64,000 bases of DNA, taken from contig CAYQOU010000003.1 of NCBI GenBank assembly GCA_964419255.1, forward strand, positions 1,417-65,416. The letters are read 5' to 3'. This document shows positions 9,951-26,551 of this stretch, one piece after another. Position numbers and translations under genes: made by a program. The notes beneath the pieces are model-generated. The model saw only the letters and a program-made list of their open reading frames with translations, was not told the DNA's origin and did no database searches. Each line of letters begins with the position of its first letter. The first letter of the stretch is position 1. The DNA comes from an uncultured Fibrobacterota bacterium (lineage in GTDB: Bacteria; Fibrobacterota; Chitinivibrionia; Chitinivibrionales; CAYFVL01).

Positions 9951-10580
9951 ATGACCACACTGATTGACCTGAGCCAGAAGATCCAGCATTCCATGCCGGT
10001 ATATCCGGGCGACAGCCCGGTGAATCTGTCCCGGGATCGCTCCCTGCACACAGACGGCTATACCTGCTTTCGGTTGGAATCGAACACCCACGCTGGAACT
10101 CATATCGATACCCCCATGCATCTTACCCAAAGCGCCAGCTATGTTCTGGATTATCCTCTCGAAAAATTCTTCGGACGGGGATGTCTGCTGGATGTGCGTG
10201 GAGAGGAGAGGATCGGGTATGCAGAGGAATATGAAGAGATAGTACAGGAAGGCGATATCGTGCTTGTCTTCACCGGGCGGGGGGAAACATTTTTGGACAG
10301 GGATTATTTCAAGAATTATCCCGTTATGGAAGAATCTCTCGTACGATTTCTGATCACGCGCAACATTAAGCTGCTTGGTCTCGATTCCCCATCTCCCGAC
10401 AGGTACCCCTTTGACATCCATAAGATCCTGTTTGAAAGTGGTATTCTGATTATCGAGAACCTGACAAATCTGGATGCCCTTCTCTCGGCAAAATCTTTCG
10501 AAATTATGGCCTTTCCCCTGAAAATCAGGGCTGATGCATCGCCGGTGCGTGTCGTGGCGCGGATGGAGAACGCGGGGTAG
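9951..10580 (+). CDS. Putative cyclase / arylformamidase (kynurenine formamidase) family protein
   Basis: HxGTHxDxPxH metal-binding signature (THAGTHIDTPMH). Size of 209 aa is typical of the family. Confidence 0.75.
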   Translation: MTTLIDLSQKIQHSMPVYPGDSPVNLSRDRSLHTDGYTCFRLESNTHAGTHIDTPMHLTQSASYVLDYPLEKFFGRGCLLDVRGEERIGYAEEYEEIVQEGDIVLVFTGRGETFLDRDYFKNYPVMEESLVRFLITRNIKLLGLDSPSPDRYPFDIHKILFESGILIIENLTNLDALLSAKSFEIMAFPLKIRADASPVRVVARMENAG

Positions 10581-10749: not shown

Positions 10750-11469
10750 ATGGTTTTTATGAATAGAGTCTCCCGACAACTGCTTCTTGCCTGGGGCATC
10801 GCGATGCTGAGTTGCGCAAGATACTTGGAAATGGGAAATTACAACCTGTCTATCTATCAGGATCTCCATTATAAAAAAGAAACGGTAAATAAGGAGAACA
10901 TGATCGTGGACCTGAATATAAAAGATCGGGACTGGGATCCCAAGAGACCCAACAAACGGGTCGGCTGGTGTGCGGAGGCCTGTATTCAGATGGCAATGGG
11001 GTATTACGGGGTGGAAATCACGCAAAAGGAGGTCAACAAGGCGGGCTCGCCTCGTCATGCGGACCTTTACATGGATGATATCGATGAAGCGCTTAAAAAC
11101 CTTTCGGTACATTTTGTCGCCTGGGACTATAACATACGAAATCTGGATGAGTTTATCGTATGGATCAAATCGATGCTCGAGAGAGGCTATCCGGTCATTT
11201 CGGGCGTAAAGATCTATCCCGACAAGTACCGTCGCTGGTTTCTGGATCATTTTGTTCTAGTGGTAGGCTACAGTAAAGAGGGGCTTCTCATTAATACCAA
11301 TATCAAAGGACAGCAGCTTATTTCGTATTCGCAGTTGAAATCATACAATCGGGGTTTTGCCATTAAAAACAGACACGATCGGTATTACGCACGCGCCATA
11401 ATCGGCCTGTCCAAGAAAAGCACTTCAGTTTCCGCCACCGACAGGTTATCGGGATTTACAATCGAATGA
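10750..11469 (+). CDS. Secreted C39-like (Peptidase_C39_2-type) papain-fold cysteine peptidase
   Basis: Signal-like N-terminus (MVFMNRVSRQLLLAWGIAMLSCA). Nucleophile context GWCAEACIQMAMGYYGVEITQKEVNKA and His context DHFVLVVGYSKEGLLINTN. The track ORF starts at 10534 and overlaps the previous gene, so I prefer the ATG at 10750. Confidence 0.65.
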   Translation: MVFMNRVSRQLLLAWGIAMLSCARYLEMGNYNLSIYQDLHYKKETVNKENMIVDLNIKDRDWDPKRPNKRVGWCAEACIQMAMGYYGVEITQKEVNKAGSPRHADLYMDDIDEALKNLSVHFVAWDYNIRNLDEFIVWIKSMLERGYPVISGVKIYPDKYRRWFLDHFVLVVGYSKEGLLINTNIKGQQLISYSQLKSYNRGFAIKNRHDRYYARAIIGLSKKSTSVSATDRLSGFTIE

Positions 11470-11542: not shown

Positions 11543-12952
11543 TCATTGTCCCGCGTCGAGATATGTCATCCTGCTGTCTTTTGACCAGTTTCCATTCAGT
11601 GCGGTTCTTTTCCAGACATAATTGGTCCGTTTTTCTATCTTACCCTTGTCATTCAACTGCACTACATACATTGAATCATATATCCAATCCCCTGTCTCGA
11701 GGTCCATAATCTCCGTAGTAATGATGGTGCTGTCGGAGTCGCCTCTTTCTCTGAAATGTACCAGTGGAAGCCATCTCTTTTTCTCCTTGTCATAGTACTG
11801 CTCTGCTTTGATCTTTATGCCGCACGAGGTGAGAGTATCGAAAGAGCGCACCTGTTCCCACTCTTCAGACTCGGCAAAATAGCCCCACTCAGTGGCTTTT
11901 TTGTCGGTAGAAATGTTGCAACGCTGATTTTCGTAATATAATAATTCCCACCTGCCTGTCGACCCGTCATATGTGAAGGTCGATTCCGCAATGGTAAATT
12001 GGTTCTGGTGCAGATGCCCTCTTTCCCATTTGTAAAAGGACCCTGATACCGGTTCTCCTTTTTTATCATAGCTTTTGTACATAACTCTGTGGCGAAGAGT
12101 ATTCCCGCTGTTATCTCTAAGTTCCGACTCCACATATACTGGAACAGGACGTTTGTTGATCAACTCGACGATACTGTCGTATGCCAGGCCGGCACTGTCT
12201 TTCATACTGAACAGCATTGCCGTGTTAGAAAGCCAGCCCTTTATTGAGCTGTCCCAATAATCGATGGTAAATGTTTGCATTATGCTGTCGCCGACCTGCC
12301 TGTATCGGCAGCGCTCCAAGGTCGTTTGTTTCGAATCTGAGCGCTTTGTATATGTATCCTCTACCCAGTTTGTTTTACCCTGCCAGGTGTTTTCTATTGT
12401 CTTAATTATCAAAACGCTGTCTCTGCCACTGTTGGAAACATCGTAAGACCTGTTGGTCATTTTGACAACTCTTCCCCGCTTATCATAAATAACACTGTCG
12501 CCGGCAACCCAGAAGCTGCGCATGGGATCCCACTGTGCGTTGTAAAGAACCACTCTGTTTCCCGACGCATTCGTCGTATCGATTCTTGCATTTGCTCCTC
12601 CGATTAGCTTCCAGTTACCGGTTTTATCCCACAGGTATATCAGCCCGGCAGTTTGATAGTGAAGATCGTCGTAGAGGAAACGTTCTAACCGATCTTTTTT
12701 CCATCGTAATCCGTTCCACCGCTCATGCAAAATGCCGATGCATTTACCATTTGAATCATGTGTGTGTGTTTGCCGATAATCGCTTGTCCAGCTAAAGCCC
12801 CTCCAGGCATCTTTAAGGATAACCTGCTGTCGGTGCGATTGAGGCAGCTCTCCAATGGCAGGGAGGTTGAGTACCATTAGTAGAGAAAAGATAACTGAAA
12901 GGGCCTGAAGGTTCATGCCGAAAGCAGCAAAGGTATGATAGGATTTTCTCAT
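11543..12952 (-). CDS. Secreted Trp/Tyr/Asp-rich repeat protein, paralog A (unknown function)
   Basis: Hydrophobic signal-like N-terminus. Clear paralogy to 19266-20681, for example ERWNGLRWKKDRLERFLYDDLHYQ vs EKWTGTKWVNDLWERFSYDDLHYP, and DSTIITTEIMDLETGDWIYDSMYVVQLNDKGKIEKR vs DSTIITADLFDVKTGKWTQDSMYIIHLNKHGKIVDK. I recognise no family. Confidence 0.7.
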   Translation of the reverse strand: MRKSYHTFAAFGMNLQALSVIFSLLMVLNLPAIGELPQSHRQQVILKDAWRGFSWTSDYRQTHTHDSNGKCIGILHERWNGLRWKKDRLERFLYDDLHYQTAGLIYLWDKTGNWKLIGGANARIDTTNASGNRVVLYNAQWDPMRSFWVAGDSVIYDKRGRVVKMTNRSYDVSNSGRDSVLIIKTIENTWQGKTNWVEDTYTKRSDSKQTTLERCRYRQVGDSIMQTFTIDYWDSSIKGWLSNTAMLFSMKDSAGLAYDSIVELINKRPVPVYVESELRDNSGNTLRHRVMYKSYDKKGEPVSGSFYKWERGHLHQNQFTIAESTFTYDGSTGRWELLYYENQRCNISTDKKATEWGYFAESEEWEQVRSFDTLTSCGIKIKAEQYYDKEKKRWLPLVHFRERGDSDSTIITTEIMDLETGDWIYDSMYVVQLNDKGKIEKRTNYVWKRTALNGNWSKDSRMTYLDAGQ

Positions 12953-13076
12953 GTCCTTACTCCTGTAATGTTGAGAATTAAATGTGTCGATTCAAATGAT
13001 AATTTATCTGCTACTCTTTCGACCTGCTCAAAGGGAAAGAGTGCCGGGACACATACATGATAGTCTTGTCAGGCAA

Positions 13077-13856
13077 TTACCACTTTGCCAGCCCGATTTT
13101 GAATCCGAATCTGCTTTTATTCTCATATTGCGGGAACCGATAATTAAATTCCGTCTGAATCTGCAGACCATTAAACACCATCATATTATATCCCAATCTC
13201 AGGGCATCTATTTCATAGCCCCGTTCATTTCCAAGAGGGTTGTTTCTGAAACGCTGATCGAAGCGCAGGTGGAGTTGTTGGCCGGCGATGAAGCTGTAGT
13301 AGAAACCGAGTTTCAATTCGGTCTCTGGTGCAAATACATGTTTCGGGCTCGATTCATCATGGGGTGTGGTGGTGTCATCCTCTGCCCAGGCCGTATCCCT
13401 TCCGGTCAACTGTTCAGCCGCCGAAAGGTAAAAACCCATAAACTGCTGATCCGGAGCCAGGTCGAAGTTGACCTCTACACCCGGGCTGGCGTAGAAATAG
13501 TAGTCGTATAATCCTACCTCCACCGTTACATCAAGAGAAAGAGGCAAATGCTTGTAAATCCCGGCTATCGATCCCATAAAAAAACCACCTGATCCTCCAC
13601 TGAAATATCTGTTTCCCTGAACGATTACTCCCATATACCCAGAAATAAAGCTGTTTAATCCCCGGCCTAAAATGGCAGTGCCGGTTGTCTTTGGTCCGAG
13701 TGAGCCGGGACCCAATTCCTGCAACCCAAGTTCAATTGAGAAATAATCGTTGTATTGATCGAAGGTTTCAATAGTGTTGAGTGAATATGCCTTTCCGGCA
13801 TTTGTCAAAATGGTCAGCATAGTGAAAACTGAAATGAGTGTTCTTATTCCGGTCAT
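13077..13856 (-). CDS. Small outer-membrane beta-barrel protein (putative)
   Basis: Signal peptide (MTGIRTLISVFTMLTILTNAGKAYS). Alternating hydrophobic/aromatic strands and a C-terminal aromatic signal (…FGFKIGLAKW). Confidence 0.6.
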   Translation of the reverse strand: MTGIRTLISVFTMLTILTNAGKAYSLNTIETFDQYNDYFSIELGLQELGPGSLGPKTTGTAILGRGLNSFISGYMGVIVQGNRYFSGGSGGFFMGSIAGIYKHLPLSLDVTVEVGLYDYYFYASPGVEVNFDLAPDQQFMGFYLSAAEQLTGRDTAWAEDDTTTPHDESSPKHVFAPETELKLGFYYSFIAGQQLHLRFDQRFRNNPLGNERGYEIDALRLGYNMMVFNGLQIQTEFNYRFPQYENKSRFGFKIGLAKW

Positions 13857-13934
13857 GCGTGTCTCTCCTTTTAGAGGGTTATGTGTGTAATTTTATACCT
13901 ATTGGTATTCTCCGATCATGATGACACAGGCTGT

Positions 13935-16900
13935 TTAATCAGTTGCCTGCAAATCAGCTCCCATATGAGGCTGCGACCGTGCAGGAATACCAAACCATGC
14001 AGTGGAGGAGGGAAGGGTCTCTCCTTTCATCACAAGTGACAAACCATCCAGAACAGTTCCCTTTCTAATGTGGGTATCATAAAGAACCACCGACATGGGC
14101 CCGATGGTCACACTGTCTTCAATATGTAAGTTAGACATCTTCATCACCCTGTCCTCAAACAGGTGGGTCTGAATCGTACAGCCGTAATTAAGCGTCGCAT
14201 TGTCACCGATTCGCACCAGGTCAAACTCGGTGATCTCCGTAGTCTCCATATACACATGCTTTCCGATCCTGCTGCCAAGCAGCCTGAAATAGGCAGGAAG
14301 AAAAGGGGTCCCCTGTATCATTTGCGTAAGCAGCGGGTATACCATATTCTCACACAGTGAGTTGATAAATTCATTTTTCCACAGATACAGGCTCCACAGG
14401 GGAATCTGAACCTGACGGTACCTGCCCACAAGAAGCCATTTAGCCACCACCGTAAGTAGCGCCAGCGCCAGTGATCCTCCAAAGATCACCAGCGGCGAAA
14501 AAAAGATGTACCATCGCAGTAACGCAACCGGTCCCAGAATTTCCGATACAAACCAATACGAGAGAATGTAGCAGCAGCTGGTCAGGGCCGCGGGCATGGT
14601 AATCTTGAAAAACTCGATTAGCCCCCGCAGAACAACCAGATAAGCCGGGGGGTCGAAGGTCAACCGCAGTTTGAATTTTTGACTCTCCTGGCGGTGAGGC
14701 AGAACCATGGGGGGAGAGCCCAGCCAGTTGGTGTTATTGATGATTTTCCGGCACGTGTCCTGTGGAGGTTTGGAAAGAACGCCGACAAGACAGTTGTCGC
14801 CGATGCGCGTGCCGATAGGAATAAGGGCACTGTTACCTATAAAGGAGCGTCTGCCTACTTCGGCTTTACCCACATACATCTTTCCTTTTCTCACAACCGT
14901 CGGGCCGACACTCGCGGAGTCGGCGATGAAACTGCCATCCCCCAGGCTCAACAGATCCGCACTGATATGATCCACGGTAGATATCTCCGCTCGTTTGCCT
15001 ATTTTTGCACCCAACAGCCGCAGCCAGTGCGGAAGATAAATAGTCGCATACAGCGGCTGTACCGTAAACAGACTCATTTGTACCAAAGTATCGACAAGCC
15101 ATTTCCGGATATACGTGATGCTGTATATGTCATAGCAGCTTTCTTTGTCGCAGGGGAATATGAGCTTCTTTATCCCCGCAACTGCCAGACAAAAGGATAT
15201 GGTGTAGGTCGCGGCCATGGGGATGGTGGCCGGAAGCGTATAGGCAAGGCTCGTGTTTACATAAAGATAAAAAGCTGCTACAATCCAGGGTAAAAGAAGG
15301 GCGCAAGGGATTATGACAGCCGATAAAAACGCACAGGCAAAGACTGTCAAATAGAAAATCGAAGCTTTGTTTCGACTCTTCTGCTCGATGTTTTCGGAAT
15401 TATTCGCTGCACCCATTGTTTTAGCCGCAGGGGAGCCCTCCCAGTATTCGCCTTCACCGACTATCATTCCCGAGGGAAGCAGCGCAAGTTCTCCCAGCTC
15501 CGAATGGTCCTTCATGACAGTGTTTTCATCCAGAACGGAACGAGTCCCGACCGTGCACTCTTGTCCTATGGCTATAGATCCGATGTGAAGCATTCCTCTG
15601 GTTACCCGATATGCCATTAGATGAGCATCCGCATTAATGGAGCTATTATCTCCAATAGATACGAGGTCACATACCCGGAACTTGTCAGATCCGATGTGAA
15701 CATTTTTGCCTATTCTTGCACCCATCAGTCTATAATACCAAACCAGAAACGGTGTACCTCGCATCATGCGGGTGGGTACCAGATCCATGAGACGACTGAC
15801 AAACCAGAATCGCAAATAAAAGAAACCCCACAACTTGTATACCCCGCTTTTGTATCGTCCGATCAGGAGCCATTTCGATATTATTGAAACGATCGTGAGC
15901 ACGGGAAGCAGTGCGAGCATTGAGACAAAGGACACCACCGCCCAGGCAACAACCCCGATAGCCGGATTAAACCAGTCGATAACAAAAGGTATGAGAAGCG
16001 GAGTTGAAAAAAGCATGAATATGGGATAAAGTGCGATTGCCTGGGAAGATCCGCAGAGGATAAATCTGAGCCACAGCAGCTTCTGTTCCTGGTCACTTGT
16101 GGCCGATTCTTTCGCCTCAATAGTGTGGGGCTGAAGAGAAAAGTTTTTCTCCACAGCCGCTGCCATCTCCTCTATGGTGCGGTATTGGTACATGTATTGA
16201 AGTGGAAGCTCCCCCATCCCCTGCTGCGTACGCAGCTCTGAAATGATGTTTGCCGCCAGTAAAGAATGGCCGCCGAGATCAAAGAAATTGTCTGTCACGC
16301 TAATGTCTTTACGATCAAAAAACTTTGCCCATGCCGCATGAATAGTTTTTTCAAGCCCGGTGCGCGGCTGCACTAACTTTATTTCCTCCCGCGTTTCCTC
16401 CACCTGAAGAGATGCCAGACGTTTCCGGTCAACCTTGCCACTGGGGAGAACGGGAAGCTCCTCCACCGAACAGAACTTCGAAGGTACCATATAGGAGGGA
16501 AGGAAACTGTTCAGCGCACTTTTCAGCCGCTTTTCATCTATATTCTTTCCTTTCTCCGACACCAAATATCCGACCAGCGATTGAATTCCCTGAGCATTGG
16601 TACTCAAAGCCACCGCCGCCTGAGAGGCATCGCAGGCTTTCACAAGCGCAGCCTCGATTTCACCCAGCTCTATACGCTGTCCCCGGAGTTTGATTTGACT
16701 GTCGATGCGTCCGCCAAACTCTAAGCTTCCGTCAGACGCAAAACGGGCTCGGTCTCCCGAACGGTACAAACGTTGGGGGAAGCCGTTACCTACTGTAAAC
16801 GGAGGCGTTACGAATTTTTTACTGGTAAGCTCCGGTCGGTTGAGGTACTCTCGAGCAAGACAGTGCCCACCGATACAAAGCTCTCCATACATTCCTTCCG

Positions 16901-18542
16901 GGACCGGCTGCAGGTTTCGGTCCAGAATGTATACGGCGTAGTTTGGCGCCGGCTTGCCGATGCCTGGTTTCATTTCCCGTATGCATTCACCACAAGTGGC
17001 TATCACTGTTGCTTCTGTCGGACCATAGGTGTTGTATATCTTCCTTTTACCGTCAAGCCACGGTTCGATGGCTCTCAGATGACACTCTTCACCGCCAAGA
17101 ATAAGTATCCGAACCGATTCCGCCGGCGTCTGCATCATCGATATCTGCGTCGGTACCGTGGAAAAGACAGTGATTTTTTCCGTTTGAAGAAACGTGACTA
17201 GATCCGGCCCGGAAAGCGCTTCCGCTTTGGTGGCGGCAACAAGCACCGCCCCACTGTACCAGGCAAGCCACATCTCCTCCACCGAAGCATCGAAAGATAT
17301 TGAAAAGCCCTGATAGATCCTGTCGCGATTATTCACGCAAAAGAGATTGCTTTCGCCACCAATGAGATTGGATACGGTTTTGTGCATAAGCACAACACCT
17401 TTGGGTTTGCCGGTTGTTCCTGATGTATAGATGATGTACGCCGGATCATCCGGTACCACACCAGTCTCTTCGGGAAGAAGATTGTGGGTGCTAAACGCCT
17501 TCAGACATTCGGGAAAATCTTCCACGCAAACACATTCGCAAGACAGCTGATTTTTATTTTTCAGCTGTGTATCGGTTATGACCAGCCTCGCTTGGGCATC
17601 ATCCAGTATATACCCGATACGCTCGGCGGGAGATCGTGGGTCTATTGGCACGTAAGCCGCCCCAGCCTTGAGAACACCCATGATTGCGATAAAAACATCC
17701 AAAGCTCGGGGAAGCAGGATTGCGATAAAATCACCCGTATTGACGCCATGGGACCTGAGATAGCGTGCCAGAGCATTGGCCTTTATGTTGAATTCATCAT
17801 AGGTGAGTTCGTTTCCCATACAACGCAGAGCAGGATTGTCGCCAAAAGCATTTACGGTGTGCTCGAACAGCTGGTGAAGACACTGCGGTTGCGCAATTAC
17901 AGGGTCGACCAGCGATACACTCCACTGATCTAATGTCTCTTGTTCCTGTCTGGAAAGCAGAGGAAGCAGAGAAATGCTTTGATCGGGCTCAGAAAACATA
18001 TGAGAAAAGAGAATCGAGAAATGTTCCGTCCACCGTTTCAGATAATGGTCGGATGATGTCGAGTCCAGGGAACTGACTATAATATTACCATCGAGAGATA
18101 TCTCAAACAGGGCGGTGATATTTCCAGAGGAATTGTCACCTGAGCTATACAGGCAATAAAACGGCTCAAGAAGTCTGGCTGGTGCAATATTATCGAAATG
18201 CACCCCGTTTATTTCTAAAGCCGATGATACCCTGTCAACAAGGCCGGAGGCGGTGACCTGATCGTCAAGAGGTAGCTCCAGAGAAAACAGCGGGGCCGAA
18301 ATCAGATTTTTTTTAACATGAAGGACTATCTGAAACTGTTCTTCATTTTGATAACGGTAAACAAGCCCCGCAAATGTCGCGATAAGAACAGCATTAAGAG
18401 AAACGTTGTGTTTCTGTGCGTAAAGTTGAGTTGCCGATATGGGGTCGGGGGAAATTATATTGAAATCAAAATCAAAATCGATGGCCTGTGTATCTTTTTT
18501 GTTGATAGCATGGTGTGCGATTTCTGTAATGTGTGCATCCAT
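13935..18542 (-). CDS. Membrane-bound NRPS-like homopoly(amino acid) synthetase, Pls-type (A-T-[2TM + hexapeptide-repeat domain]x3)
   Basis: Adenylation core motifs (YIIYTSGTTGKPKGV, FDASVEEM, NTYGPTE, GELCIGG, YRSGD, GRIDSQIKLRGQRIELGEIE, PSGKVDRK). PCP motif FFDLGGHS (Ser codon 16263-16265). There is no canonical C or TE domain. The C-terminal 700 aa hold three blocks, each with hydrophobic helices followed by a hexapeptide-like domain (RLMGARIGKNVHIGSD…, LRLLGAKIGKRAEIST…, FRLLGSRIGKHVYMETT…). Confidence 0.85.
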   Translation of the reverse strand: MDAHITEIAHHAINKKDTQAIDFDFDFNIISPDPISATQLYAQKHNVSLNAVLIATFAGLVYRYQNEEQFQIVLHVKKNLISAPLFSLELPLDDQVTASGLVDRVSSALEINGVHFDNIAPARLLEPFYCLYSSGDNSSGNITALFEISLDGNIIVSSLDSTSSDHYLKRWTEHFSILFSHMFSEPDQSISLLPLLSRQEQETLDQWSVSLVDPVIAQPQCLHQLFEHTVNAFGDNPALRCMGNELTYDEFNIKANALARYLRSHGVNTGDFIAILLPRALDVFIAIMGVLKAGAAYVPIDPRSPAERIGYILDDAQARLVITDTQLKNKNQLSCECVCVEDFPECLKAFSTHNLLPEETGVVPDDPAYIIYTSGTTGKPKGVVLMHKTVSNLIGGESNLFCVNNRDRIYQGFSISFDASVEEMWLAWYSGAVLVAATKAEALSGPDLVTFLQTEKITVFSTVPTQISMMQTPAESVRILILGGEECHLRAIEPWLDGKRKIYNTYGPTEATVIATCGECIREMKPGIGKPAPNYAVYILDRNLQPVPEGMYGELCIGGHCLAREYLNRPELTSKKFVTPPFTVGNGFPQRLYRSGDRARFASDGSLEFGGRIDSQIKLRGQRIELGEIEAALVKACDASQAAVALSTNAQGIQSLVGYLVSEKGKNIDEKRLKSALNSFLPSYMVPSKFCSVEELPVLPSGKVDRKRLASLQVEETREEIKLVQPRTGLEKTIHAAWAKFFDRKDISVTDNFFDLGGHSLLAANIISELRTQQGMGELPLQYMYQYRTIEEMAAAVEKNFSLQPHTIEAKESATSDQEQKLLWLRFILCGSSQAIALYPIFMLFSTPLLIPFVIDWFNPAIGVVAWAVVSFVSMLALLPVLTIVSIISKWLLIGRYKSGVYKLWGFFYLRFWFVSRLMDLVPTRMMRGTPFLVWYYRLMGARIGKNVHIGSDKFRVCDLVSIGDNSSINADAHLMAYRVTRGMLHIGSIAIGQECTVGTRSVLDENTVMKDHSELGELALLPSGMIVGEGEYWEGSPAAKTMGAANNSENIEQKSRNKASIFYLTVFACAFLSAVIIPCALLLPWIVAAFYLYVNTSLAYTLPATIPMAATYTISFCLAVAGIKKLIFPCDKESCYDIYSITYIRKWLVDTLVQMSLFTVQPLYATIYLPHWLRLLGAKIGKRAEISTVDHISADLLSLGDGSFIADSASVGPTVVRKGKMYVGKAEVGRRSFIGNSALIPIGTRIGDNCLVGVLSKPPQDTCRKIINNTNWLGSPPMVLPHRQESQKFKLRLTFDPPAYLVVLRGLIEFFKITMPAALTSCCYILSYWFVSEILGPVALLRWYIFFSPLVIFGGSLALALLTVVAKWLLVGRYRQVQIPLWSLYLWKNEFINSLCENMVYPLLTQMIQGTPFLPAYFRLLGSRIGKHVYMETTEITEFDLVRIGDNATLNYGCTIQTHLFEDRVMKMSNLHIEDSVTIGPMSVVLYDTHIRKGTVLDGLSLVMKGETLPSSTAWFGIPARSQPHMGADLQATD

Positions 18543-19265
18543 ATGCCAAATCCTTTGTTGCGAAATGTAATGATGGCCTTAAACAGAATCGATAATGAAA
18601 ACTGGCGTATCCTCCGGCAGATCTTTGGAGACAAAGAGAAATGTTCGTTCTGCCGGTGGCGTTTAATAAAAAAACCAGACATAGCTGGTATTAAGTAAAC
18701 CAAATATCGCACCAGAGAGTATGCATCTGGTTTTATTACAGGACATAAATGGTTGACTATAGCGGGTAAGCGGATCAATAGAGAAACCGAATTGGGCATT
18801 GTACCGATTAAAAAGGGCAAATGCTGAATGTAAAAAAGCGCACAATATGAGTGGCGCTATTTCGCCAAAAAAGAATGGCGTGTTTATCATGTCATCGGTA
18901 AAACAAAAGACTTAATCATTTTGAAAAGGATAGGTGTCAAGAAGCATAGAGTTGGGAAATGTAAGTATGCAGAACAGCTGGGGCATTAAAGGAGATCTGT
19001 GTGTTTTGCGCCTTTTTCTCTCAGCACATGAAGCGTGACGGGGTAAAAAAGGCAACTTTCTCGAGGTGCTTTTCTAAGATAGTTTTCTTTTCTAACAGTC
19101 GACCTGCGATACCAGTATATCCGCCAATTCTGAAGGACAAGGAAAACAGTCTGTAAAACGAAAGGTTTACAGAACCAGAGATAAGGGTTTCAGGAAAAAA
19201 TCCTTAGTTTTAAAGTGGATGATAGGTTTTAAACTTAACCTTTATAAAGAATAGTTGATATAAAA

Positions 19266-20681
19266 CTATCTATTTGGATCCTTGTATATAATTCGTCTGT
19301 ATTTTTGCCAGCCATTTGAAAGGGCGTCTTCCGCAGTTCTGGTATAGATGATCTTATCTACTATTTTACCGTGTTTGTTTAGATGTATTATGTACATCGA
19401 ATCCTGAGTCCATTTGCCTGTTTTTACATCAAATAGGTCAGCGGTTATTATGGTGCTGTCCTGTTGTCTGTTTTCTGAAAAGGTAATCAGCGGTATCCAC
19501 TCCCTTTTTGATGAATCGAAATATTTGCGTCCCTTTATCTTTAAGCCGTAAGGGGTGATGAAATCAAACTGCCTGGTCTGCCCCCATTTTCCGGTTTCTT
19601 TGCCGTAGTATCCCCATTCATCTATGCCCAAATCGGAGGAGATATCGCGCGTCTGCCTGTAATAGTGCAGCAGTTTCCATCCTGACACTTCAAGGGTATA
19701 TGTCGACTCGGCTACGGTATACTGGTGTTTGTCGGGGTTATATTTACGCTTCCAAATGTAGTGAATTCCTGTATGGCCGTCGCGTGAGTCTCCGGAAAAA
19801 TTCAGACATAACCGGTGTGTCAACAGGTTGCCCCGTTCGTCTCGTTTTACAAGCTCTACATACAGAGGCGTAACACCACTATCTCTTAATTCCACCAGGC
19901 TGTCGTACACAATGCCGGCACTGTCCTTTACCCGAAAAAGTTTCGCTTTATCCACGAGCCATGCTTGGCTCTCTTCATCCCAGTAATCTACGGAAATGGT
20001 ACTAAGCTCCCGGGATATCGAATCACTGTTTTCCCGATACTGTCTGCGTGTCGCAGTCGTTTCCCGGGTATCGGAGCGCCAGATGGTACTGTTTTGAATC
20101 CACCGGGCATCATTACTCCAGCTGTTTTCGGTAGTATAAATTATTGTGGTAGTATCCCATCCGTATTGAGACGAAATGGTTTGGGTGATAACCCGCTTCT
20201 TTACCCTGTCGTAACTGTCATACACGGTAAGATCTTCGGCACACCACCTCTTTTCTGCCGCATCCCATGCCGCATCCCGCAGCACTACCCTGTTTCCCAC
20301 GATATCGATTGTATCGATCTCTTTACGCGTGCCCTCTATCATCCTCCAGCCACTGTCCTGAAACCACCTATACACTAGCCAGCTAACCGGGTAGTGAAGA
20401 TCATCATAGGAGAATCGCTCCCATAGGTCATTAACCCATTTTGTACCAGTCCACTTCTCATGCATGATACTGATGCACTGACCGGAGGTGTCAAAGGTAT
20501 AGGTAAGGCGTACATCACTACACCAATGGTAGGTGTTCCACTTCTCCTTTACAACTATACTCTGTCTAAACAATCCGGTAGTGCTGCCCGTGGTATGAAA
20601 AACTATGCCTTGCAGAAAAAAAAGTATGAAAACGAATAGACGATGTACAGAGGCAAAAGTAAAGGATGAGCGTGTATTCAT
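19266..20681 (-). CDS. Secreted Trp/Tyr/Asp-rich repeat protein, paralog B (unknown function)
   Basis: Paralog of 11543-12952 along the full length. I prefer the ATG at 20681 (MNTRSSFTFASVHRLFVFILFFLQG, signal-like) to the track start at 20762. Confidence 0.7.
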   Translation of the reverse strand: MNTRSSFTFASVHRLFVFILFFLQGIVFHTTGSTTGLFRQSIVVKEKWNTYHWCSDVRLTYTFDTSGQCISIMHEKWTGTKWVNDLWERFSYDDLHYPVSWLVYRWFQDSGWRMIEGTRKEIDTIDIVGNRVVLRDAAWDAAEKRWCAEDLTVYDSYDRVKKRVITQTISSQYGWDTTTIIYTTENSWSNDARWIQNSTIWRSDTRETTATRRQYRENSDSISRELSTISVDYWDEESQAWLVDKAKLFRVKDSAGIVYDSLVELRDSGVTPLYVELVKRDERGNLLTHRLCLNFSGDSRDGHTGIHYIWKRKYNPDKHQYTVAESTYTLEVSGWKLLHYYRQTRDISSDLGIDEWGYYGKETGKWGQTRQFDFITPYGLKIKGRKYFDSSKREWIPLITFSENRQQDSTIITADLFDVKTGKWTQDSMYIIHLNKHGKIVDKIIYTRTAEDALSNGWQKYRRIIYKDPNR

Positions 20682-21085
20682 GGTTTTTCCCCTGAAGGTC
20701 ATATGATGATAACGGGATATGCGCCGTTTTATGTCCTGCTTCGCCATGTTCTTGTAGTCCAAAAATCAGACCAGTGAGCGGGGTAACGGGTAAGGCAAAA
20801 TTGCAAAACACAGAGTAGATTGAGCTATAAATTCCTCAAACCAACTTCAAATCACAATTTTTGCGCTTAAAAGAAGGATGGCGCCGGATTGATAAAATGC
20901 GCATGCGCGAAAGTGAAAAAGGTGGGAAAGAGAAGGGGTGATAAGCAAGAATGGGGAGTCTGCACAGGAAAATAGCAGCTCCGGCATTATGAGATGAAAT
21001 AACCGCCTTGTAGATGCGTCTGTGCAGAGAGGAATACTTTTTCGCACGAATGAACAGAAACAAATCTACCCGCGGCACATCATTT

Positions 21086-22069
21086 TCATCCTGAAAAGGA
21101 GTCCCTTTTTTGTGAAGCTCGGAACAGCCGATCGTTTATGGCTCTCCCCAGACCGGTGTCGGGAACTGATGTCGCGACTATTAGATCCAGATGAGCAGCA
21201 TCGAGCCGCTTGAGCGCGGAAAAAAGATTACAGGCGGCTTCCGAAAGATCCTCGGTCGGCGAGAGGTTCTCGACTCTATGAAAAAATGCATCTTCAACCG
21301 GCTTGCCTATGGTCAGCAGTCCCATGCGCTTGCCTTCCGGCAGCTCGGTGATGGTGTCGGTTAGTATCAAAGGAGTGCCGGGAGCATAATGTCTGCTGAA
21401 CCGTCCAGGGGAGGCATGCTTGAGCTCATCGCGCTCGGGAACATGTACGGTCCCGATTATTTCCTCTATATCCTCCAGAGCAATACCCCCTGGCCGCAGC
21501 AGGGTAGGCCTTGATTCCATAAAGGAGACAATGGTTGATTCAACTCCCACATCGCAGCATCCACCATCGATTATCAGATCCACCGCATCGCCAAGATCTG
21601 CTCTGACATGATCGGCACAGGTAGGACTGATACAGCCAAAGGAGTTGGCACTGGGAGCAGAAATCGCTGCGTGGGACGAGTTGATCAACTCCAGGGCAAT
21701 CGGATTATCAGGCATGCGGATTCCAACTCCGGGGAGGCCCGCGGTGACCAGGTCGGGAATCGAGGACCTTTTTCTTACAATCATGGTCAAAGGGCCGGGC
21801 CAGAATTGGTCCATGAGCCTTCGTGCCTCCGGCGGTATCTCGGCAGCAACATGCTCAGCCTGATCGGGAGAGCCGATATGCACAATCAGCGGATCGAATT
21901 CGGGACGTTTCTTTATGGCGAAAATCTTTGCCACTGCCTGTTCATTGCGTGCATCTGCTCCAAGTCCGTATACCGTCTCGGTGGGAAATGCAACCGTTCC
22001 CCCGGAAACAATTATGGAAGCTGCTTTCTCAATTATTCTGTTCACTGTACTCTCCACTGGTTTTCTCAC
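21086..22069 (-). CDS. tsaC: L-threonylcarbamoyladenylate synthase, long Sua5 form (YrdC domain + Sua5 C-terminal domain)
   Basis: YrdC/Sua5 signature (GGTVAFPTETVYGLGADA, …SAPSANSFG…). The 327-aa length fits the two-domain form. Confidence 0.85.
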   Translation of the reverse strand: MRKPVESTVNRIIEKAASIIVSGGTVAFPTETVYGLGADARNEQAVAKIFAIKKRPEFDPLIVHIGSPDQAEHVAAEIPPEARRLMDQFWPGPLTMIVRKRSSIPDLVTAGLPGVGIRMPDNPIALELINSSHAAISAPSANSFGCISPTCADHVRADLGDAVDLIIDGGCCDVGVESTIVSFMESRPTLLRPGGIALEDIEEIIGTVHVPERDELKHASPGRFSRHYAPGTPLILTDTITELPEGKRMGLLTIGKPVEDAFFHRVENLSPTEDLSEAACNLFSALKRLDAAHLDLIVATSVPDTGLGRAINDRLFRASQKRDSFSG

Positions 22070-22470
22070 ATCTAACCGGCTTTCCCGGCGCAGATTGACA
22101 TCTCTATTCTTCGCACAATCCGTCTGGCGGTATTACTTCTGATAATCACCCCATAATCATCGGGAGGGAAATGTCACATGCTATCACGGAAGAGTTTTTG
22201 TCGGCAAGGTCCCGATCAAAGATGCTCAGTAACCATTGCAGAGATTTGCTGCCTGATAGAATGGGTTTTTCCGACCGGATATAATATATCGGAGTAGTAA
22301 GATTTGGCCCTTTGTCTGCGCAAAAGAAAAATATATCATTTCTCCATTTATTTCGTATCAATGCCGCTATTATGCAGCTGCATGAGCTGAAGTTGAATGA
22401 AAATACTCCACGATCAGAAATAGAATGGGATTTAGTTTCTTTGTCTTAAACCTGTCCTCTGTATCCTCGC

Positions 22471-22523
22471 TCCCGTCTCTTCCCGCTTGCGGGCCAGAAG
22501 GACGGGAAGAAAAGCTTTTTTTT
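22471..22523 (+). terminator. Intrinsic-terminator-like hairpin plus T8 in the 5' leader of the methyltransferase gene
   Basis: tcttcccg (22478-22485) pairs with cgggaaga (22503-22510). An alternative pairing is tcccgtc (22471-22477) with gacggga (22501-22507). The hairpin is followed by aaaagctttttttt. No plus-strand ORF lies upstream. Confidence 0.4.
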
Positions 22524-22604
22524 ATAGAAAACGCGTGTCATTTCAGGATCTGATTCATATACTTTATCAGGGTGTTTCCGATCATATATAGATGAGGTTT
22601 TCTC

Positions 22605-23468
22605 ATGGATAACGTATTGAATCAGGCTCAGATCGAAGAGTGTAAAAGCCGTTTTAATTTGACCTATCATGTTTCTTATGCCGCCATGTGCCGAAAAATG
22701 GCGGGATTTGCCGGAAAGGATGTTCTGGAGGTAGGAGGAAGCCTTCCTCCAGAATTTGTATTCGACTATCTGAAGGTCAGAACCTGGACCGCTATGGAAA
22801 CTCCTGAATATGATCAGGCACTCAAAGAAACCGGTGGAATCACTCACAAGGGGACAATCCTGGGAAATGAAGGCATGGACTATGTGCCGGGAGCTGATAC
22901 TATCATCAAGGAAAATTATCGTTTTATTTACGGCAATATCGAGGAGCTGTCAGAGCGGCTTTACGAGCAATTCGACCTGATTTTCTCGATAGCAACATTC
23001 GAACATATCCATAAGATGCCGATGGCTCTGGAACAAATGTATAATGCTCTAAAAGCCGACGGAAAGGTGTTTAGCATGTTTTCACCGGTATGGTCATCCT
23101 TTGACGGCCATCACCTGCCCAAGATTACCGATATTGATGGAAAGAGCTACAATTTTGGGAATAGCCCGATACCTGCCTGGGGACATTTACTCATGGGGCC
23201 GGCGGAGATGTATGAATACCTGTGCACAAAAACCGACAAGGTGACAGCCGCACACATGGCCTATTATGTATACAACTCAACGCACATCAACCGATTCTTT
23301 GTGGAAGACTATATACGGTTTTTCTCGCTGAGTCCCTTTACTGTGGAAACCTGTAATCTTACATTTCCCGCCAGCATGCCTCCGGGGATGCAAAAAAGAT
23401 TGCAAGAGCTATTTCCGGGGAAAAAGCATTTCGCATACAATGGCATTCTGGTTATTCTAAAAAAATAG
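22605..23468 (+). CDS. Putative class I SAM-dependent methyltransferase
   Basis: Motif I-like GKDVLEVGGSLPPE and motif post-I/II-like FDLIFSIATFEHI…LKADGKVF. This is a weak assignment by eye. Confidence 0.5.
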   Translation: MDNVLNQAQIEECKSRFNLTYHVSYAAMCRKMAGFAGKDVLEVGGSLPPEFVFDYLKVRTWTAMETPEYDQALKETGGITHKGTILGNEGMDYVPGADTIIKENYRFIYGNIEELSERLYEQFDLIFSIATFEHIHKMPMALEQMYNALKADGKVFSMFSPVWSSFDGHHLPKITDIDGKSYNFGNSPIPAWGHLLMGPAEMYEYLCTKTDKVTAAHMAYYVYNSTHINRFFVEDYIRFFSLSPFTVETCNLTFPASMPPGMQKRLQELFPGKKHFAYNGILVILKK

Positions 23469-23479
23469 TTGCAAGTTGA

Positions 23480-26400
23480 TTATTTGACTGAAAGCTGTTC
23501 AAAAATCTCCTCTATTTGATCTACCGAACGCTTGATGTCGAAGGTGTCGAAAGCACGTTTTTGCCCCTGCCTTCTGAGTCGGTCCCAAAGAGGATGATCG
23601 TGGTGCAGAGTAAGCAGTTTTCCTGTGAGCGAGAGGTGATCGCCCGATTTAAACACCAGTCCCGATTGCATGTCCTGTACAATCTCAGCGGCTCCACCGG
23701 TTGCACTCGTGATTACACATGCCCCGGAAGCCATCGCTTCAACCTGGCTGATACCGAATGCCTCCGAAACCAGGGAGGGAAAGACCAGTACATTATGGCT
23801 TTTGTACATCCTCACCAGCTCATCCCGCGTGAGATTGCCGGTGAAATGCACCTGATTTGACAGTCCTGCACGGGCACATATCCTCTTGAGATTCTCAACG
23901 AAAGTCATGTCCGTGCTGGTGCCGGCGATCGTCGCACTGAAGGGTATTCCACGCGACTCGAGTTCGAGGAGCGCCTTTATTAAAATCTGCGGTCCCTTGT
24001 AGGGGAGAACGATGCCGGCATAGGCAATGGATAGCGAGCCGGGTTCTTCCAGGTCAGCCTGGTAGAACCTGTCGACCAGCGCTCCGGGGTAGATGACGTC
24101 GATGTGCTTGAGCGGATAGCCTTTTCGCCATATCTCGTCCCGAAGCCATCGACTGGCTGTCGCGAGTCGGTAGAGGGGATCTCCCGGTGACTGCTCCGGT
24201 GGATATCCCGGTTGTGGATTACCCAGATGCTGTAAAACCGGTACGCGACGGTTGATAAGTTCAAAAATCAGATCTGCACCAATGAAATCAGCATTTCCAA
24301 ACAGGCACACATCGGGTTTGTATGCTTGCAGTGCAGCATTGAGAGTGTGAACATTCTTCTCAATAACCTGCCTCACCACCTCAGCATCGAAAGAGTTGGT
24401 GATACCGTTTTTCCATTCACCAAACAATTCCAGATCTCTCGATATGTCCTTTTCTTCCGAAGGCGCTTGTCCCAGATAGGCTGTATCAGAGGTTAATACC
24501 TGTACCTGATAACCGCGGCCGCGCAACAGTTCGGTAAAATCGAAAAGCAGTCTGCCATAGCCACCCAGCTCCTGCGGTGGGAACAGGTTATTGATGATCA
24601 GTATCCGCTGGGCAGCTGTGCCTTTGGATAATCGTCCTTTTTGTGGAGCAGTATGTTGCAGGTGCTCGACTGCAGCCTTAATGTGGAGCTGATCGGCCTT
24701 GAGTCGGAGTGATTGACGAAATGTTTCAAGCGCCTGGTGTGTAGAAGAGATTTCCAGAAACAGATTTCCCAACATATTCAGGTAATCCACTCTTTCGGGA
24801 AACAGCGCTGTGAGTCGTTGGAGGTAGGGAATCGCTTTGGTCACTAGACCTGCTGCGCAGTAGTGATCAACGGTTGACAAAAGAAGCGTTTTATCTTTGG
24901 GTGAGATAAACACAGCCTGCTCCAAAAGCTCCCCGGCCGTTTCTTTATCTTGAAATCGATACGCTAACAGACCAAGAATATGGATACGTTTGCCGTCGGA
25001 TGTGTTGCCGGTAAGCTGCGAACGCAAGGTCGACAACAAATCGACCGGCGAGAAAGAGGTGAGCAGTATGCTGAGAAAATCAGAGTAATTTTTCCATTGC
25101 CATATCTGTGGGTTATTCTGAAACTTCTCCAATCCTGCGGATATTAATGATTCTTCGCATTTGTCGCAGCATTCACCCAAAAGGGCAATCCGCAAGGACG
25201 GATAGGTATGAATCAGCCTTGCGATATAATCTTCTTCCCAATCGCCCGGTTTAATTACCAACAAATCCCACAATTTTTTTGTTTCCGGATTAATTTCGAT
25301 GTGAGCACCAGTGGTACCGTCGTATTGATGCTCCTCGAGGAAGGCTGCCCAGCTGATCGGATCGTTAGTATCGATACCCATGTTCAGACGCGGTAGATCG
25401 TGACAGTCATCTATCAGGTGCCGGTCGGCTTCCGAGGCGAAGCAGACCAGAGGGGTCGGACTCTGCAGATGCAGCTCCTGAATATGCTCATATAATGAGA
25501 CGCGTTCGTAAAGGCTCCGAAAAGATGATGTGTGAATGTGAGCACGTTTGTCTCGCTCTATTTTATATTCAGGTGTCAGATCTCCCCCAAAGACGCAACT
25601 GAACAATTCTTGGGCTTTTTGTTCGGGGCGATGTTTTTCCCAGAATTTTTGTTTGCCCGCTCTTGATATTTTCTCTCTTTGACCGGAATTTTCCATGTAG
25701 AACTGGATTAGCTGCTGCAGATCCGACGGACTTTTATAGGTGCGAAGATGCACGCCATCCTCAAACAGCAGATCGAGTCCTGATTCTTTGCTCAGTTGAT
25801 CGGTAAGAAGAAAGCCACCGCTTGAAAGCACTTCAAAGATACGGAGATTCATATCCCCGTTGAGGCTGCAGTTTAGATTTATTTTAGATTCGGCATATAC
25901 TTGCGCGGCCTTTTGCTGTGGCAGCTGCATATGCTCTACCGCTTGACTTTTTTTACGGAGATAATCAAGAACATATCTTCGGTATGGATGCCATTGCGCC
26001 GTCTGGCCGATAAAGCTTACAGAGTGTTTGTACTCCATAACCTCCGGCTGTGGGTGGGGAAAGACATTGAAGCCGGGTATCCAGTGCACATTTCGAAAAC
26101 CCGCCTCACAGAAGTAATGCAGGTGATGCCGCTTGTGATCAGTTATTACCCAGTCAAACTTCTCCTGTCGTGCGTAGTCAAGAAGCATCCGCAGGGGGCG
26201 ATTGAGATGTTGAGTATTTCCGAGGATCAGTACCTTCGGACATGGTGCACTTCTCAGACCAACGGGAAAATTGCGTGCAGTTGCATCTGCTTTGATAATG
26301 ATAACATCTGGTTGTTGATTGGGCGGCAGCGTTTTTATAACAGGTTCGATGGAATATACCCCTGATGGTGTGCGAAAGCTTTTTATCATCGACTGGTGTT

Positions 26401-26551
26401 CAACCGACTGGCAATCAGGGCCGCAGAAAATTTCATTGGGAGAAAAAATGATCGGACGGTAGGCTTCCCTTTGTGCAAGAAAAAACAGCAAAGCTTTACA
26501 ATCGGGATAAAGTGCAGGGTCGTGAAGGTTGTATGAGTTGAGCTCAGTCAT
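23480..26551 (-). CDS. Multi-module glycosyltransferase (CgeB-like GT module - TPR region - GT4/GT1-family module)
   Basis: N-terminal CgeB/Glyco_trans_1_2-like region (INLNCSLNGDMNLRIFEVLSSGGFLLTD…). TPR-like repeats lie in the middle. The C-terminal GT4 module carries the EX7E-type motif (PSLVSEAFGISQVEAMASGACVI). Confidence 0.7.
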   Translation of the reverse strand: MTELNSYNLHDPALYPDCKALLFFLAQREAYRPIIFSPNEIFCGPDCQSVEHQSMIKSFRTPSGVYSIEPVIKTLPPNQQPDVIIIKADATARNFPVGLRSAPCPKVLILGNTQHLNRPLRMLLDYARQEKFDWVITDHKRHHLHYFCEAGFRNVHWIPGFNVFPHPQPEVMEYKHSVSFIGQTAQWHPYRRYVLDYLRKKSQAVEHMQLPQQKAAQVYAESKINLNCSLNGDMNLRIFEVLSSGGFLLTDQLSKESGLDLLFEDGVHLRTYKSPSDLQQLIQFYMENSGQREKISRAGKQKFWEKHRPEQKAQELFSCVFGGDLTPEYKIERDKRAHIHTSSFRSLYERVSLYEHIQELHLQSPTPLVCFASEADRHLIDDCHDLPRLNMGIDTNDPISWAAFLEEHQYDGTTGAHIEINPETKKLWDLLVIKPGDWEEDYIARLIHTYPSLRIALLGECCDKCEESLISAGLEKFQNNPQIWQWKNYSDFLSILLTSFSPVDLLSTLRSQLTGNTSDGKRIHILGLLAYRFQDKETAGELLEQAVFISPKDKTLLLSTVDHYCAAGLVTKAIPYLQRLTALFPERVDYLNMLGNLFLEISSTHQALETFRQSLRLKADQLHIKAAVEHLQHTAPQKGRLSKGTAAQRILIINNLFPPQELGGYGRLLFDFTELLRGRGYQVQVLTSDTAYLGQAPSEEKDISRDLELFGEWKNGITNSFDAEVVRQVIEKNVHTLNAALQAYKPDVCLFGNADFIGADLIFELINRRVPVLQHLGNPQPGYPPEQSPGDPLYRLATASRWLRDEIWRKGYPLKHIDVIYPGALVDRFYQADLEEPGSLSIAYAGIVLPYKGPQILIKALLELESRGIPFSATIAGTSTDMTFVENLKRICARAGLSNQVHFTGNLTRDELVRMYKSHNVLVFPSLVSEAFGISQVEAMASGACVITSATGGAAEIVQDMQSGLVFKSGDHLSLTGKLLTLHHDHPLWDRLRRQGQKRAFDTFDIKRSVDQIEEIFEQLSVK

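Follow-up and report, generated by a model that had tools for sequence, protein, structure and literature searches.

How might a bacterium enclosed by two membranes handle a polycationic polymer of amino acids that it makes itself? This question is raised by a gene for a Pls/PosA-family synthetase in an uncultured Fibrobacterota bacterium of the Chitinivibrionales (NCBI GenBank assembly GCA_964419255.1, contig CAYQOU010000003.1), located in a stretch of 64,000 nt that was analysed at its full length; we call this whole stretch the window, and all coordinates given below without a locus label refer to it. The products of Pls enzymes are extracellular in known producers and epsilon-PL (short for epsilon-poly-L-lysine) inhibits Gram-negative bacteria at 1-2 ug/ml (PMC8506220), so that a diderm producer plausibly needs a controlled exit for its polymer. 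Pls-type synthetases are widespread in diderm bacteria, and the literature searched contains no account of the role of their products in these organisms or of the way in which a polycation leaves its producer. An earlier note on this DNA had also remarked that no accessory set is described for Pls systems, which is consistent with the same literature, where no conserved set of Pls partners is described. Such a set is present at this locus: the synthetase gene is accompanied by genes for an outer-membrane barrel, a Sec-exported repeat protein and a C39-like cysteine peptidase, and the four genes recur together on about 12 independent Fibrobacterota contigs. We propose that they form a conserved, clade-specific envelope set that would export the polymer or hold it at the outer membrane and trim it, a functional reading whose chances we judge to be evenly balanced.

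The synthetase gene (13935-18542, minus strand) encodes a single-module non-ribosomal peptide synthetase (NRPS) of 1535 amino acids (aa). The model TIGR02353 matches residues 834-1521 with 624.5 bits, against a cut-off of 423.1, and a Pfam scan revealed AMP-binding, AMP-binding_C, PP-binding and Hexapep domains. The enzyme thus contains a single adenylation domain and a single thiolation domain, whereas a complete condensation domain and a thioesterase domain are both missing, and on both counts it is a new member of the known Pls/PosA family. Its plan comprises an N-terminal condensation remnant of ~220 aa, the adenylation domain, the thiolation domain, and what appear to be hydrophobic membrane segments alternating with three hexapeptide-repeat domains; hydrophobic clusters were located between the Hexapep regions, at residues 827-897, 1059-1097 and 1335-1374, by a simple hydropathy scan that cannot count the six transmembrane helices typical of the family. 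Residues 1-225 (17868-18542, minus strand) gave a weak Condensation match (E 0.0047), and alignments to NRPSs with a condensation-adenylation (C-A) didomain start at residues 155-193. Judged from the lengths of open reading frames (ORFs) alone, this N-terminal extension appears to be common to the Pls enzymes of Fibrobacterota and Bacteroidota (~1490-1540 aa), and those of Planctomycetota and Bacillus (~1350-1400 aa) appear to be without it.

What would this enzyme polymerise? Its specificity code, the positions of which were set by motif alignment without a structure, reads DAESIGTVIK, and the same code is found in every orthologue, the orthologues in related loci being 58-67% identical to the synthetase. 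The code of the Streptomyces albulus Pls is DAESIGTVVK, for lysine, and the general rule for such codes is that the first residue is Asp and the third Glu, while the second determines the length of the substrate, Ala standing for Lys (PMC10522769). Nine of the ten positions are the same in the two enzymes, and Asp1, Ala2 and Glu3 are all present in the window synthetase. From the 9/10 match and the Ala at position 2, the predicted product is therefore a lysine polymer of the epsilon-PL type.

Which genes accompany the synthetase, and how constantly? On the same, minus strand, its gene is followed by that of the barrel (13077-13856, 259 aa) and that of repeat protein paralog A (11543-12952, 469 aa), and it is preceded by the gene of a second repeat protein, paralog B (19266-20681, 471 aa), which sits between a Sua5 gene and the Pls gene. 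The gene order had been given correctly in the earlier note, as had the gaps, which the ORF coordinates show to be exact: 723 bp between paralog B and Pls, 78 bp between Pls and the barrel, and 124 bp between the barrel and paralog A. That note had overlooked a fourth conserved gene beyond its coordinates, encoding a C39-like (papain-fold) cysteine peptidase at 10750-11469 on the plus strand, convergent with paralog A. From a collection of 185,579 species genomes, the 80 Pls loci closest to that of the window were taken and scanned with profiles of the three partners; the whole set was found only in the three Fibrobacterota loci. In total, about 12 instances of the module are available. All four genes occur together in the window and in L001, L003, L005, L006, L008, L012, L090, L093 and L099; L098 has the four genes, the last of them, unannotated, being cut by the contig end, and in L100, the contig of which begins just upstream of the barrel gene, the three partners are present. 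The expectation that the barrel and repeat families would be syntenic with Pls elsewhere thus holds across these Fibrobacterota contigs, although it does not extend to diderm Pls systems in general.

In the related loci, Pls (1519-1529 aa) is followed by the barrel and one repeat protein (467-485 aa), with short gaps or overlaps between the genes, and the C39-like gene, found in every module locus, lies on the opposite strand in all but one of them. The exception is L093, which is rearranged so that the peptidase gene is divergent and upstream of Pls, with Pls, barrel and repeat protein still in order. In a second contig, the pieces are 72%, 49%, 41% and 69% identical to the window proteins, and over all loci the four-gene core is kept at protein identities down to 25-40%, while the flanks vary from locus to locus (GH9 cellulase, sensor kinases, nitroreductase, flavin adenine dinucleotide (FAD) oxidoreductase, Sua5 gene). 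The labelled genomes are given as 'Fibrobacteres', Chitinispirillaceae and Chitinivibrionales. The module is therefore confined to Fibrobacterota of the Chitinivibrionia/Chitinispirillia type, plus a partial version in one other lineage.

This partial version was found at L022:7538-13521, in a metagenome-assembled genome of 66% GC, the label of which ('uncultured Enterobacteriaceae') is almost certainly wrong. There, the Pls gene is followed 21 bp later by the gene of a barrel homologue (hhalign probability 99.4%) and then by that of a very basic protein with a phytochelatin-synthase-like papain fold (Phytochelatin family match) and a hydrophobic, signal-like N-terminus; no repeat protein is encoded within 10 kb. 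This recurrence in an independent lineage links the barrel, together with a papain-fold enzyme, to the synthetase and not to the repeat protein. Note that homology between the C39-like enzyme of the window and the papain-like enzyme of L022 could not be demonstrated (hhalign probability 0.2%).

These distributions bear on the simplest alternative, namely that the four genes have no functional link and are neighbours by descent in a narrow clade, each serving an unrelated envelope process. All full modules do lie in Fibrobacterota, and C39-like homologues exist elsewhere without Pls, both of which would agree with such a history. However, the flanks vary while the four-gene core is kept at low identities, L093 is rearranged and nevertheless complete, the partial module recurs in an unrelated high-GC lineage, and no member of the barrel or repeat family has been encountered apart from Pls. 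We consider mere neighbourhood very improbable for these reasons.

Turning to the individual partners, the reading of the 259-aa protein as a beta-barrel of the outer membrane is borne out by an AlphaFold2 model (pLDDT 71, pTM 0.62) built on an alignment of 11 sequences, by Foldseek and by its amphipathic strands, one face of which is strongly hydrophobic and the other polar and highly charged. Among the Foldseek matches, with E-values between 1e-7 and 1e-5 and TMq 0.5-0.62, are FapF, NanC, KdgM, OmpG and the beta-domains of autotransporters. A signal peptide, a closed amphipathic barrel and a C-terminal aromatic residue (Trp) place the protein among the 12-stranded outer-membrane channels, an assignment that concerns the fold class only; as modelled, it is a channel-type outer-membrane barrel with ~12 strands. 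Its sequence has no match in Pfam, NCBIfam or the PDB. The family is very rare, amounting to 11 clusters in 5.8 billion proteins, and all nine of the nine members whose contigs were examined are encoded directly after a Pls gene or in a module.

The repeat proteins, paralogs A and B, are homologous over their full length, as had been estimated by eye at ~40-45% identity, the computed value being 40% over 475 aligned positions (E 1e-116). Their N-termini are indeed signal-like, being hydrophobic and Sec-like by sequence reading, with a helix at residues 12-28 in the structural model. Paralog A is 39-47% identical to its orthologues in L001, L003, L005, L006 and L008, with 72 invariant columns that are rich in W, D and Y. 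Neither paralog has a Pfam match at E <= 0.1, and word-indexed searches, whether started from A alone or from a 7-sequence alignment, returned 2-3 proteins and missed known members; an exhaustive profile search was used instead. Carried out against 1.84 billion representatives, it gave ~10 clusters of full-length repeat proteins, followed by 1545 weaker relatives in which residues ~45-95 of the query match 5-11 times each. In these relatives, a unit of 29 aa (YTYDxxGNxLTxLxExWxGTQWV) is repeated in tandem; the ones that were tested match RHS_repeat and DUF3836, and most of them carry Por_Secre_tail, the type IX C-terminal domain. This domain is present in the distant relatives P0022, P0024, P0025, P0028, P0053 and P0106 and absent from A, B and their orthologues, which therefore do not classify as type IX cargo. 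The full-length family is, like the barrel family, very rare, and neither has been seen away from Pls.

The recurring W/Y/D-rich hairpin units that had been noticed in A and B are real insofar as residues ~45-95 match the 29-aa repeat of the relatives; however, sub-profile searches within A and B found no statistically significant internal repeats, the repeats of these two proteins being too degenerate for statistical detection. Whole-protein E-values against YD/DUF3836 repeat proteins reach 1e-49 to 1e-16, and the family profile matches the DUF3836 structure 4r8o (E 0.0014). Single-domain models remain below their thresholds: for RHS/YD (PF05593, TIGR03696), the best RHS_repeat value across 7 family members is E 0.097, and Rhs_assc_core reaches 17.3 bits against a cut-off of 32.5, in paralog B only; DUF3836 (PF12930) scores at most 20.7 bits, in the orthologue P0015, against a threshold of 25 bits, with E 0.0059 in one of the seven members. 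This indicates a relation to DUF3836 at the superfamily level only. By these comparisons A and B are divergent members of a YD/DUF3836-like hairpin-repeat superfamily that have kept the Sec signal and lack the type IX tag. The family had not been recognised in the earlier note; the superfamily is recognisable, as YD/RHS-like and DUF3836-like relatives of type IX cargo. Neither these proteins nor the barrel matched a well-known unrelated family, such as the lipoproteins of polysaccharide utilization loci that had been named as a possible refutation. We also would like to point out a distant full-length homologue of the paralogs, P0060 (647 aa, E 4e-31 over residues 39-446), a strongly acidic protein that carries at its C-terminus an additional domain resembling a type IX tail.

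A different division of labour can be imagined, in which the barrel would be a dedicated translocator of the FapF, autotransporter or two-partner type and the repeat protein would be what it delivers to the surface. Such a product might be an adhesin by which the polymer is bound or displayed, with a covalent attachment possibly made by the papain-like enzyme in the role of a transpeptidase. The best barrel matches are the protein-secreting 12-stranded FapF and autotransporter beta-domains, and the relatives of the repeat protein are type IX-tagged secreted surface proteins, the tag having been lost in this subfamily. Moreover, the barrel and repeat genes are adjacent, their frames abut or overlap in L090, L093 and L100, and in the window the repeat protein is duplicated and the barrel is not. 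However, in L022 the barrel homologue directly follows Pls although a repeat protein is missing from the surrounding 10 kb, and KdgM and NanC, which are non-protein channels, match the barrel equally well. A barrel devoted to the secretion of the repeat protein is, in our opinion, quite unlikely.

The fourth gene encodes the best conserved of the partners, with orthologues that are 54-69% identical. Its assignment to the C39 peptidases is based on matches to Peptidase_C39_2 (PF13529; 32.8 bits, threshold 24) and Peptidase_C39 (PF03412; 27 bits, threshold 22), together with a weak match to BtrH_N. The invariant motifs GWCAE and LDHF.L.VGY contain the candidate catalytic Cys and His, by motif position and without a structure. 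A longer ORF starting at 10534 overlaps a putative cyclase gene (9951-10580); the start at 10750 (MVFMNRVSRQLLLAWGIAMLSC...) avoids this overlap, and it is here that comparison of the orthologues puts the start, giving a lipoprotein-like signal. In those proteins for which an N-terminus has been called, it consists of a hydrophobic stretch with a Cys at its end, and the peptidase is probably a lipoprotein. The classical C39 setting, with the peptidase as the N-domain of an ATP-binding cassette (ABC) exporter cleaving double-glycine leaders, was not found here, the protein being a stand-alone enzyme of ~240 aa without ABC domains. C39-like homologues with 44-51% identity (L091, L092, L094-L097) share the motifs WDPxRPD and VGWCAE, and most of them have a hydrophobic, signal-like N-terminus.

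In several module loci, the C39-like gene is directly preceded, on its own strand, by a gene for an FAD-dependent oxidoreductase (PF12831) (L001:3224-4831; L006:13453-15054, with a gap of 14 bp; L008:12981-14720; L099:9131-10732). The equivalent position in the window is held by the putative cyclase gene, and the oxidoreductase may be an extra member of the module in one subclade.

An extracytoplasmic peptidase with an intact Cys/His pair also invites the idea of self-protection, according to which it would destroy polymer that has leaked into the periplasm or come back into it, with the barrel and the repeat protein altering or shielding the envelope so that the cell withstands its own polycation, and the polymer leaving the cell by some other way. 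Streptomyces producers carry two polymer-degrading enzymes, the exo-type Pld and the endo-type PldII, and the activity of epsilon-PL on Gram-negatives at low concentration makes a need for protection conceivable (PMC8506220); in addition, most diderm Pls loci have no barrel, so that export may not need one. On the other hand, a channel-type barrel with a polar lumen, encoded directly after the synthetase, is more readily understood as a conduit than as a shield, and a basic protein such as the peptidase is unexpected for an enzyme that binds a polycation. Deletion of both Pld and PldII in Streptomyces left yield and chain length unchanged (PMC8506220), which likewise speaks against this idea. 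We regard self-protection as unlikely.

We return to the export or retention of the polymer at the outer membrane. What has been set out above is which genes are present, their homologies, the folds and localisation signals predicted for their products, the substrate code and the conserved co-location; from this we infer the following physical roles, together with co-transcription of the module genes. At the inner membrane, the synthetase would link L-lysine into a polycationic chain with isopeptide bonds and extrude this chain through its own membrane domain; the barrel would be the exit for the chain in the outer membrane; the repeat protein may serve as its scaffold or chaperone in the periplasm or at the surface; and the peptidase would trim, release or clear polymer in the periplasm, a role that can be likened to that of PldII beside the Streptomyces pls gene and of PgdS beside the Bacillus pgs genes. 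All three partners carry export signals, in keeping with such roles.

Several observations weigh against this proposal. None of the three partners was found in 55 of 56 non-Fibrobacterota Pls loci with at least 3 kb of downstream sequence, many of them diderm, and posA of Acinetobacter baumannii, which encodes the one Gram-negative synthetase that has been studied, is reported to be a single-gene operon without partner genes (PMC10522769); diderms in general can therefore have a working Pls without the module. As all complete modules belong to one phylum-level clade, part of the conservation could be inheritance. Nor do the charges of the partners give clear support for the binding of a polycation. 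A cation-selective signature was sought in the lumen of the barrel and not found, the lumen-facing charges being roughly balanced, and the net acidity of the barrel (isoelectric point, pI, 4.4-5.5) may be owed largely to a loop that four members lack; cation selectivity can therefore not be claimed. The repeat proteins are near neutral (pI 5.0-8.7), with no acidic ones found among the module members, and the peptidase is basic (pI 9.1-9.5). The AlphaFold2 model of paralog A, made from three sequences, is all beta-hairpin and of low confidence (pLDDT 46); its Foldseek TM-scores, below 0.2, are unusable, the top local matches being Rhs and DUF3836. Finally, in the metagenome contigs of the C39-like homologues (L091, L092, L094-L097), no Pls, barrel or repeat protein is encoded in the available sequence, which extends over 10 kb on both sides only for the contig of L095/L096 and over less than 3 kb for L091 and L092. 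The peptidase family reaches beyond the module, and it follows from these homologues without Pls that the ancestral role of the peptidase is not Pls-specific.

What, then, is the significance of the second repeat protein in the window? The synthetase had been described as bracketed by two paralogs, as if this were a feature of the system. All other loci have a single copy, which lies downstream of the barrel, and the second is absent from all of them, including the nearest, L003; the module as such is therefore not characterised by bracketing. The genes for Sua5, a methyltransferase and a large tetratricopeptide repeat (TPR)-glycosyltransferase are syntenic between window positions 21086-26551 and L003:1-4520, and between these genes and Pls paralog B is the sole insertion in the window relative to L003, where a 55-aa ORF takes its place next to the same three neighbours. 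In a neighbour-joining tree, B is sister to the pair formed by A and its L003 counterpart, on a long branch. Paralog B is thus a lineage-specific, faster-evolving duplicate; it retains all 72 family-invariant residues and is probably functional. The regions upstream of B and of Pls share no duplicated DNA beyond a 15-nt motif, and no inverted repeats of the kind seen in mobile elements were found there.

This motif is of interest for the regulation of the locus. The intergenic region between paralog B and Pls (18543-19265, minus strand) measures 723 bp and has a GC content of 38.6%; its 3' part contains the conserved motif and the Pls leader. In orthologous loci, too, Pls is preceded by a non-coding stretch, of 540-830 bp. 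A promoter-like motif, TGGTGCGATATTTGG, lies at 18700-18714 (minus strand), ~160 nt upstream of the Pls start codon; the stretch TGGCCTGATTTTTGGATGTTAA is identical in five orthologous loci, ~175-200 nt before Pls, and is the sole strongly conserved stretch in that region. A copy, TGGTCTGATTTTTGG, is found at 20759-20773 (minus strand), 78 nt upstream of the start codon of paralog B. An alternative TTG start of the paralog B ORF, at 20762, falls within this copy, and the ATG is the start that was used for a public protein, P0014, that is 99% identical. The degenerate 15-nt pattern TGGYNNGRTNTTTGG, which is conserved before Pls throughout the related loci, has three exact matches in the window, where 0.05 would be expected, and one match in 1.2 Mb of unrelated loci. 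The third match in the window (16562-16576, minus strand) falls within the coding sequence of Pls, in codons for SLVGYLV, and may be due to chance.

By its spacing and its TGGC...TTGG bases, the motif resembles a -24/-12 promoter of the sigma-54 type, and we regard it as a promoter-like element. It departs, however, from the sigma-54 consensus at the -12 C, and no sigma-54 gene, GAFTGA-containing activator or RpoN box was detected near the module in the DNA scanned. The occurrence of the same motif upstream of both genes suggests that paralog B is probably a transcription unit of its own, separate from the Pls operon and co-regulated with it. A hairpin followed by a run of T (ACCAGCTATGTCTGGT TTTTTTA) is also found at 18674-18689 (minus strand), starting ~11 nt after the motif that precedes Pls; a leader or attenuator element is conceivable, as is a stray terminator, and the hairpin is not obviously conserved in the orthologous leaders. 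A riboswitch was considered for the 723-bp gap and abandoned, as no Rfam family reaches its gathering score anywhere in the window and the gap itself gives sub-threshold noise alone.

The block had also been described, as an impression, as more AT-rich than its flanks. The difference is real, with 46.8% GC as compared to 49.5% in both flanks, although it is modest. The accessory genes have 45.6-45.9% GC, and the synthetase gene, with 49.2%, equals the mean of the window. The tetranucleotide distance between the block and the window is 0.145, the largest among blocks of this size (0.099 +/- 0.014 for the others). We do not read this deviation as evidence of gene transfer, since the encoded proteins are themselves unusual in composition.

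Other Pls loci have neighbours of their own. An Sfp-type phosphopantetheinyl transferase is encoded downstream of Pls in 12 loci of Bacteroidota, Janthinobacterium, Hymenobacter and Bacillus (L025:12089-12778, L075:6281-6967, L052:12116-12802 and nine further loci), and in several of them its gene begins within a few bases of the Pls stop codon; no such gene was found within 10 kb of the Fibrobacterota module. Seven Bacteroidota loci (Bacteroidia, Hymenobacter) encode downstream of Pls another unannotated, secreted-type protein of ~270-300 aa with a hydrophobic, signal-like N-terminus and a weak Gcw_chp match (L013:12776-13642, L014:6521-7360, L015:6815-7690, L032:12752-13690, L056:15717-16583, L063:13170-14042 and L074:6930-7787). 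It may be an analogous outer-membrane protein; homology to the barrel was not detectable (hhalign probability 1.3%). An unexpected partner is found in Pedobacter, where a gene for an S-adenosylmethionine (SAM) hydroxide adenosyltransferase (SAM_HAT_N/C) comes right after Pls (L017:12147-13082, L020:12150-13139); in L021, also from Pedobacter, the corresponding ORF was assigned by position and size only.

The module supplies candidate parts for the handling of the polymer across two membranes, one as the pore, one as a partner in the periplasm and one as the enzyme for processing, and three protein families that lacked annotation gain a genomic context. If the parts work as proposed, they could possibly aid the engineering of poly-lysine secretion in Gram-negative hosts. 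The narrow and uncultured host range limits this interest.

How does the module compare with known systems? Its synthetase belongs to the same TIGR02353 family as Pls of S. albulus and PosA of A. baumannii and appears to share their domain plan; it differs from them by the ~220-aa N-terminal extension and, in its diderm host, by the accompanying outer-membrane barrel, repeat protein and peptidase. The peptidase shares the Cys/His papain fold with enzymes that act on isopeptide polymers, such as PgdS (NlpC/P60), phytochelatin synthase and BtrH, and its gene adjoins that of a poly-amino-acid synthetase, much as pgdS adjoins pgsBCAE in Bacillus. It differs from these enzymes and from the classical C39 peptidases in being basic, extracytoplasmic and free of any ABC-transporter fusion; PldII, by contrast, is presumably a metalloprotease and not a papain-fold enzyme. 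The repeat proteins resemble the YD/RHS and DUF3836 proteins (type IX cargo of Bacteroidota, with YTYDxxGN...W.G.QWV repeats) in residues ~45-95 and in an all-beta-hairpin fold, while having no RHS core, toxin domain or type IX C-terminal domain. The best structural matches of the barrel are the 12-stranded channels FapF and KdgM/NanC (E between 1.7e-7 and 1.6e-6; the highest TMt, 0.85, is that of KdgM), which pass linear polymers; their sequence identity to the barrel is 7-13%. However, FapF has an N-terminal plug and a coiled coil, and the pores of KdgM and NanC are lined for acidic sugars.

The closest likeness of the module as a whole is to synthase-dependent secretion (Alg8/44-AlgK-AlgE-AlgL; Pel; PgaABCD; BcsABZC), with which it shares the logic of its components. 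In such systems, an inner-membrane polymerase that also translocates its product is combined with a barrel in the outer membrane and, in the periplasm, with a scaffold made of repeats and an enzyme by which the polymer is cut. The likeness is one of function and not of sequence, in which the single trace is a sub-threshold match to the PelB barrel (E 0.048). The TPR scaffold and the porin of 16-18 strands that characterise AlgK/AlgE, PelB, PgaA and BcsC were not found in the module, which has no TPR matches and a barrel of ~12 strands; a YD-like protein would take the place of the TPR scaffold, and the product would be a non-ribosomal poly-amino acid instead of a polysaccharide. Tentatively, and as a possibility on the doubtful side, the four genes might thus encode an undescribed trans-envelope apparatus of this general kind, in which the YD-like protein would stand in for the TPR scaffold, the barrel would form the exit pore and the papain-fold lipoprotein would set the chain length or attach the polymer to the cell surface. 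The cationic nature of the predicted product would not be foreign to synthase-dependent secretion, as Pel and partly deacetylated poly-N-acetylglucosamine (PNAG) are also cationic.

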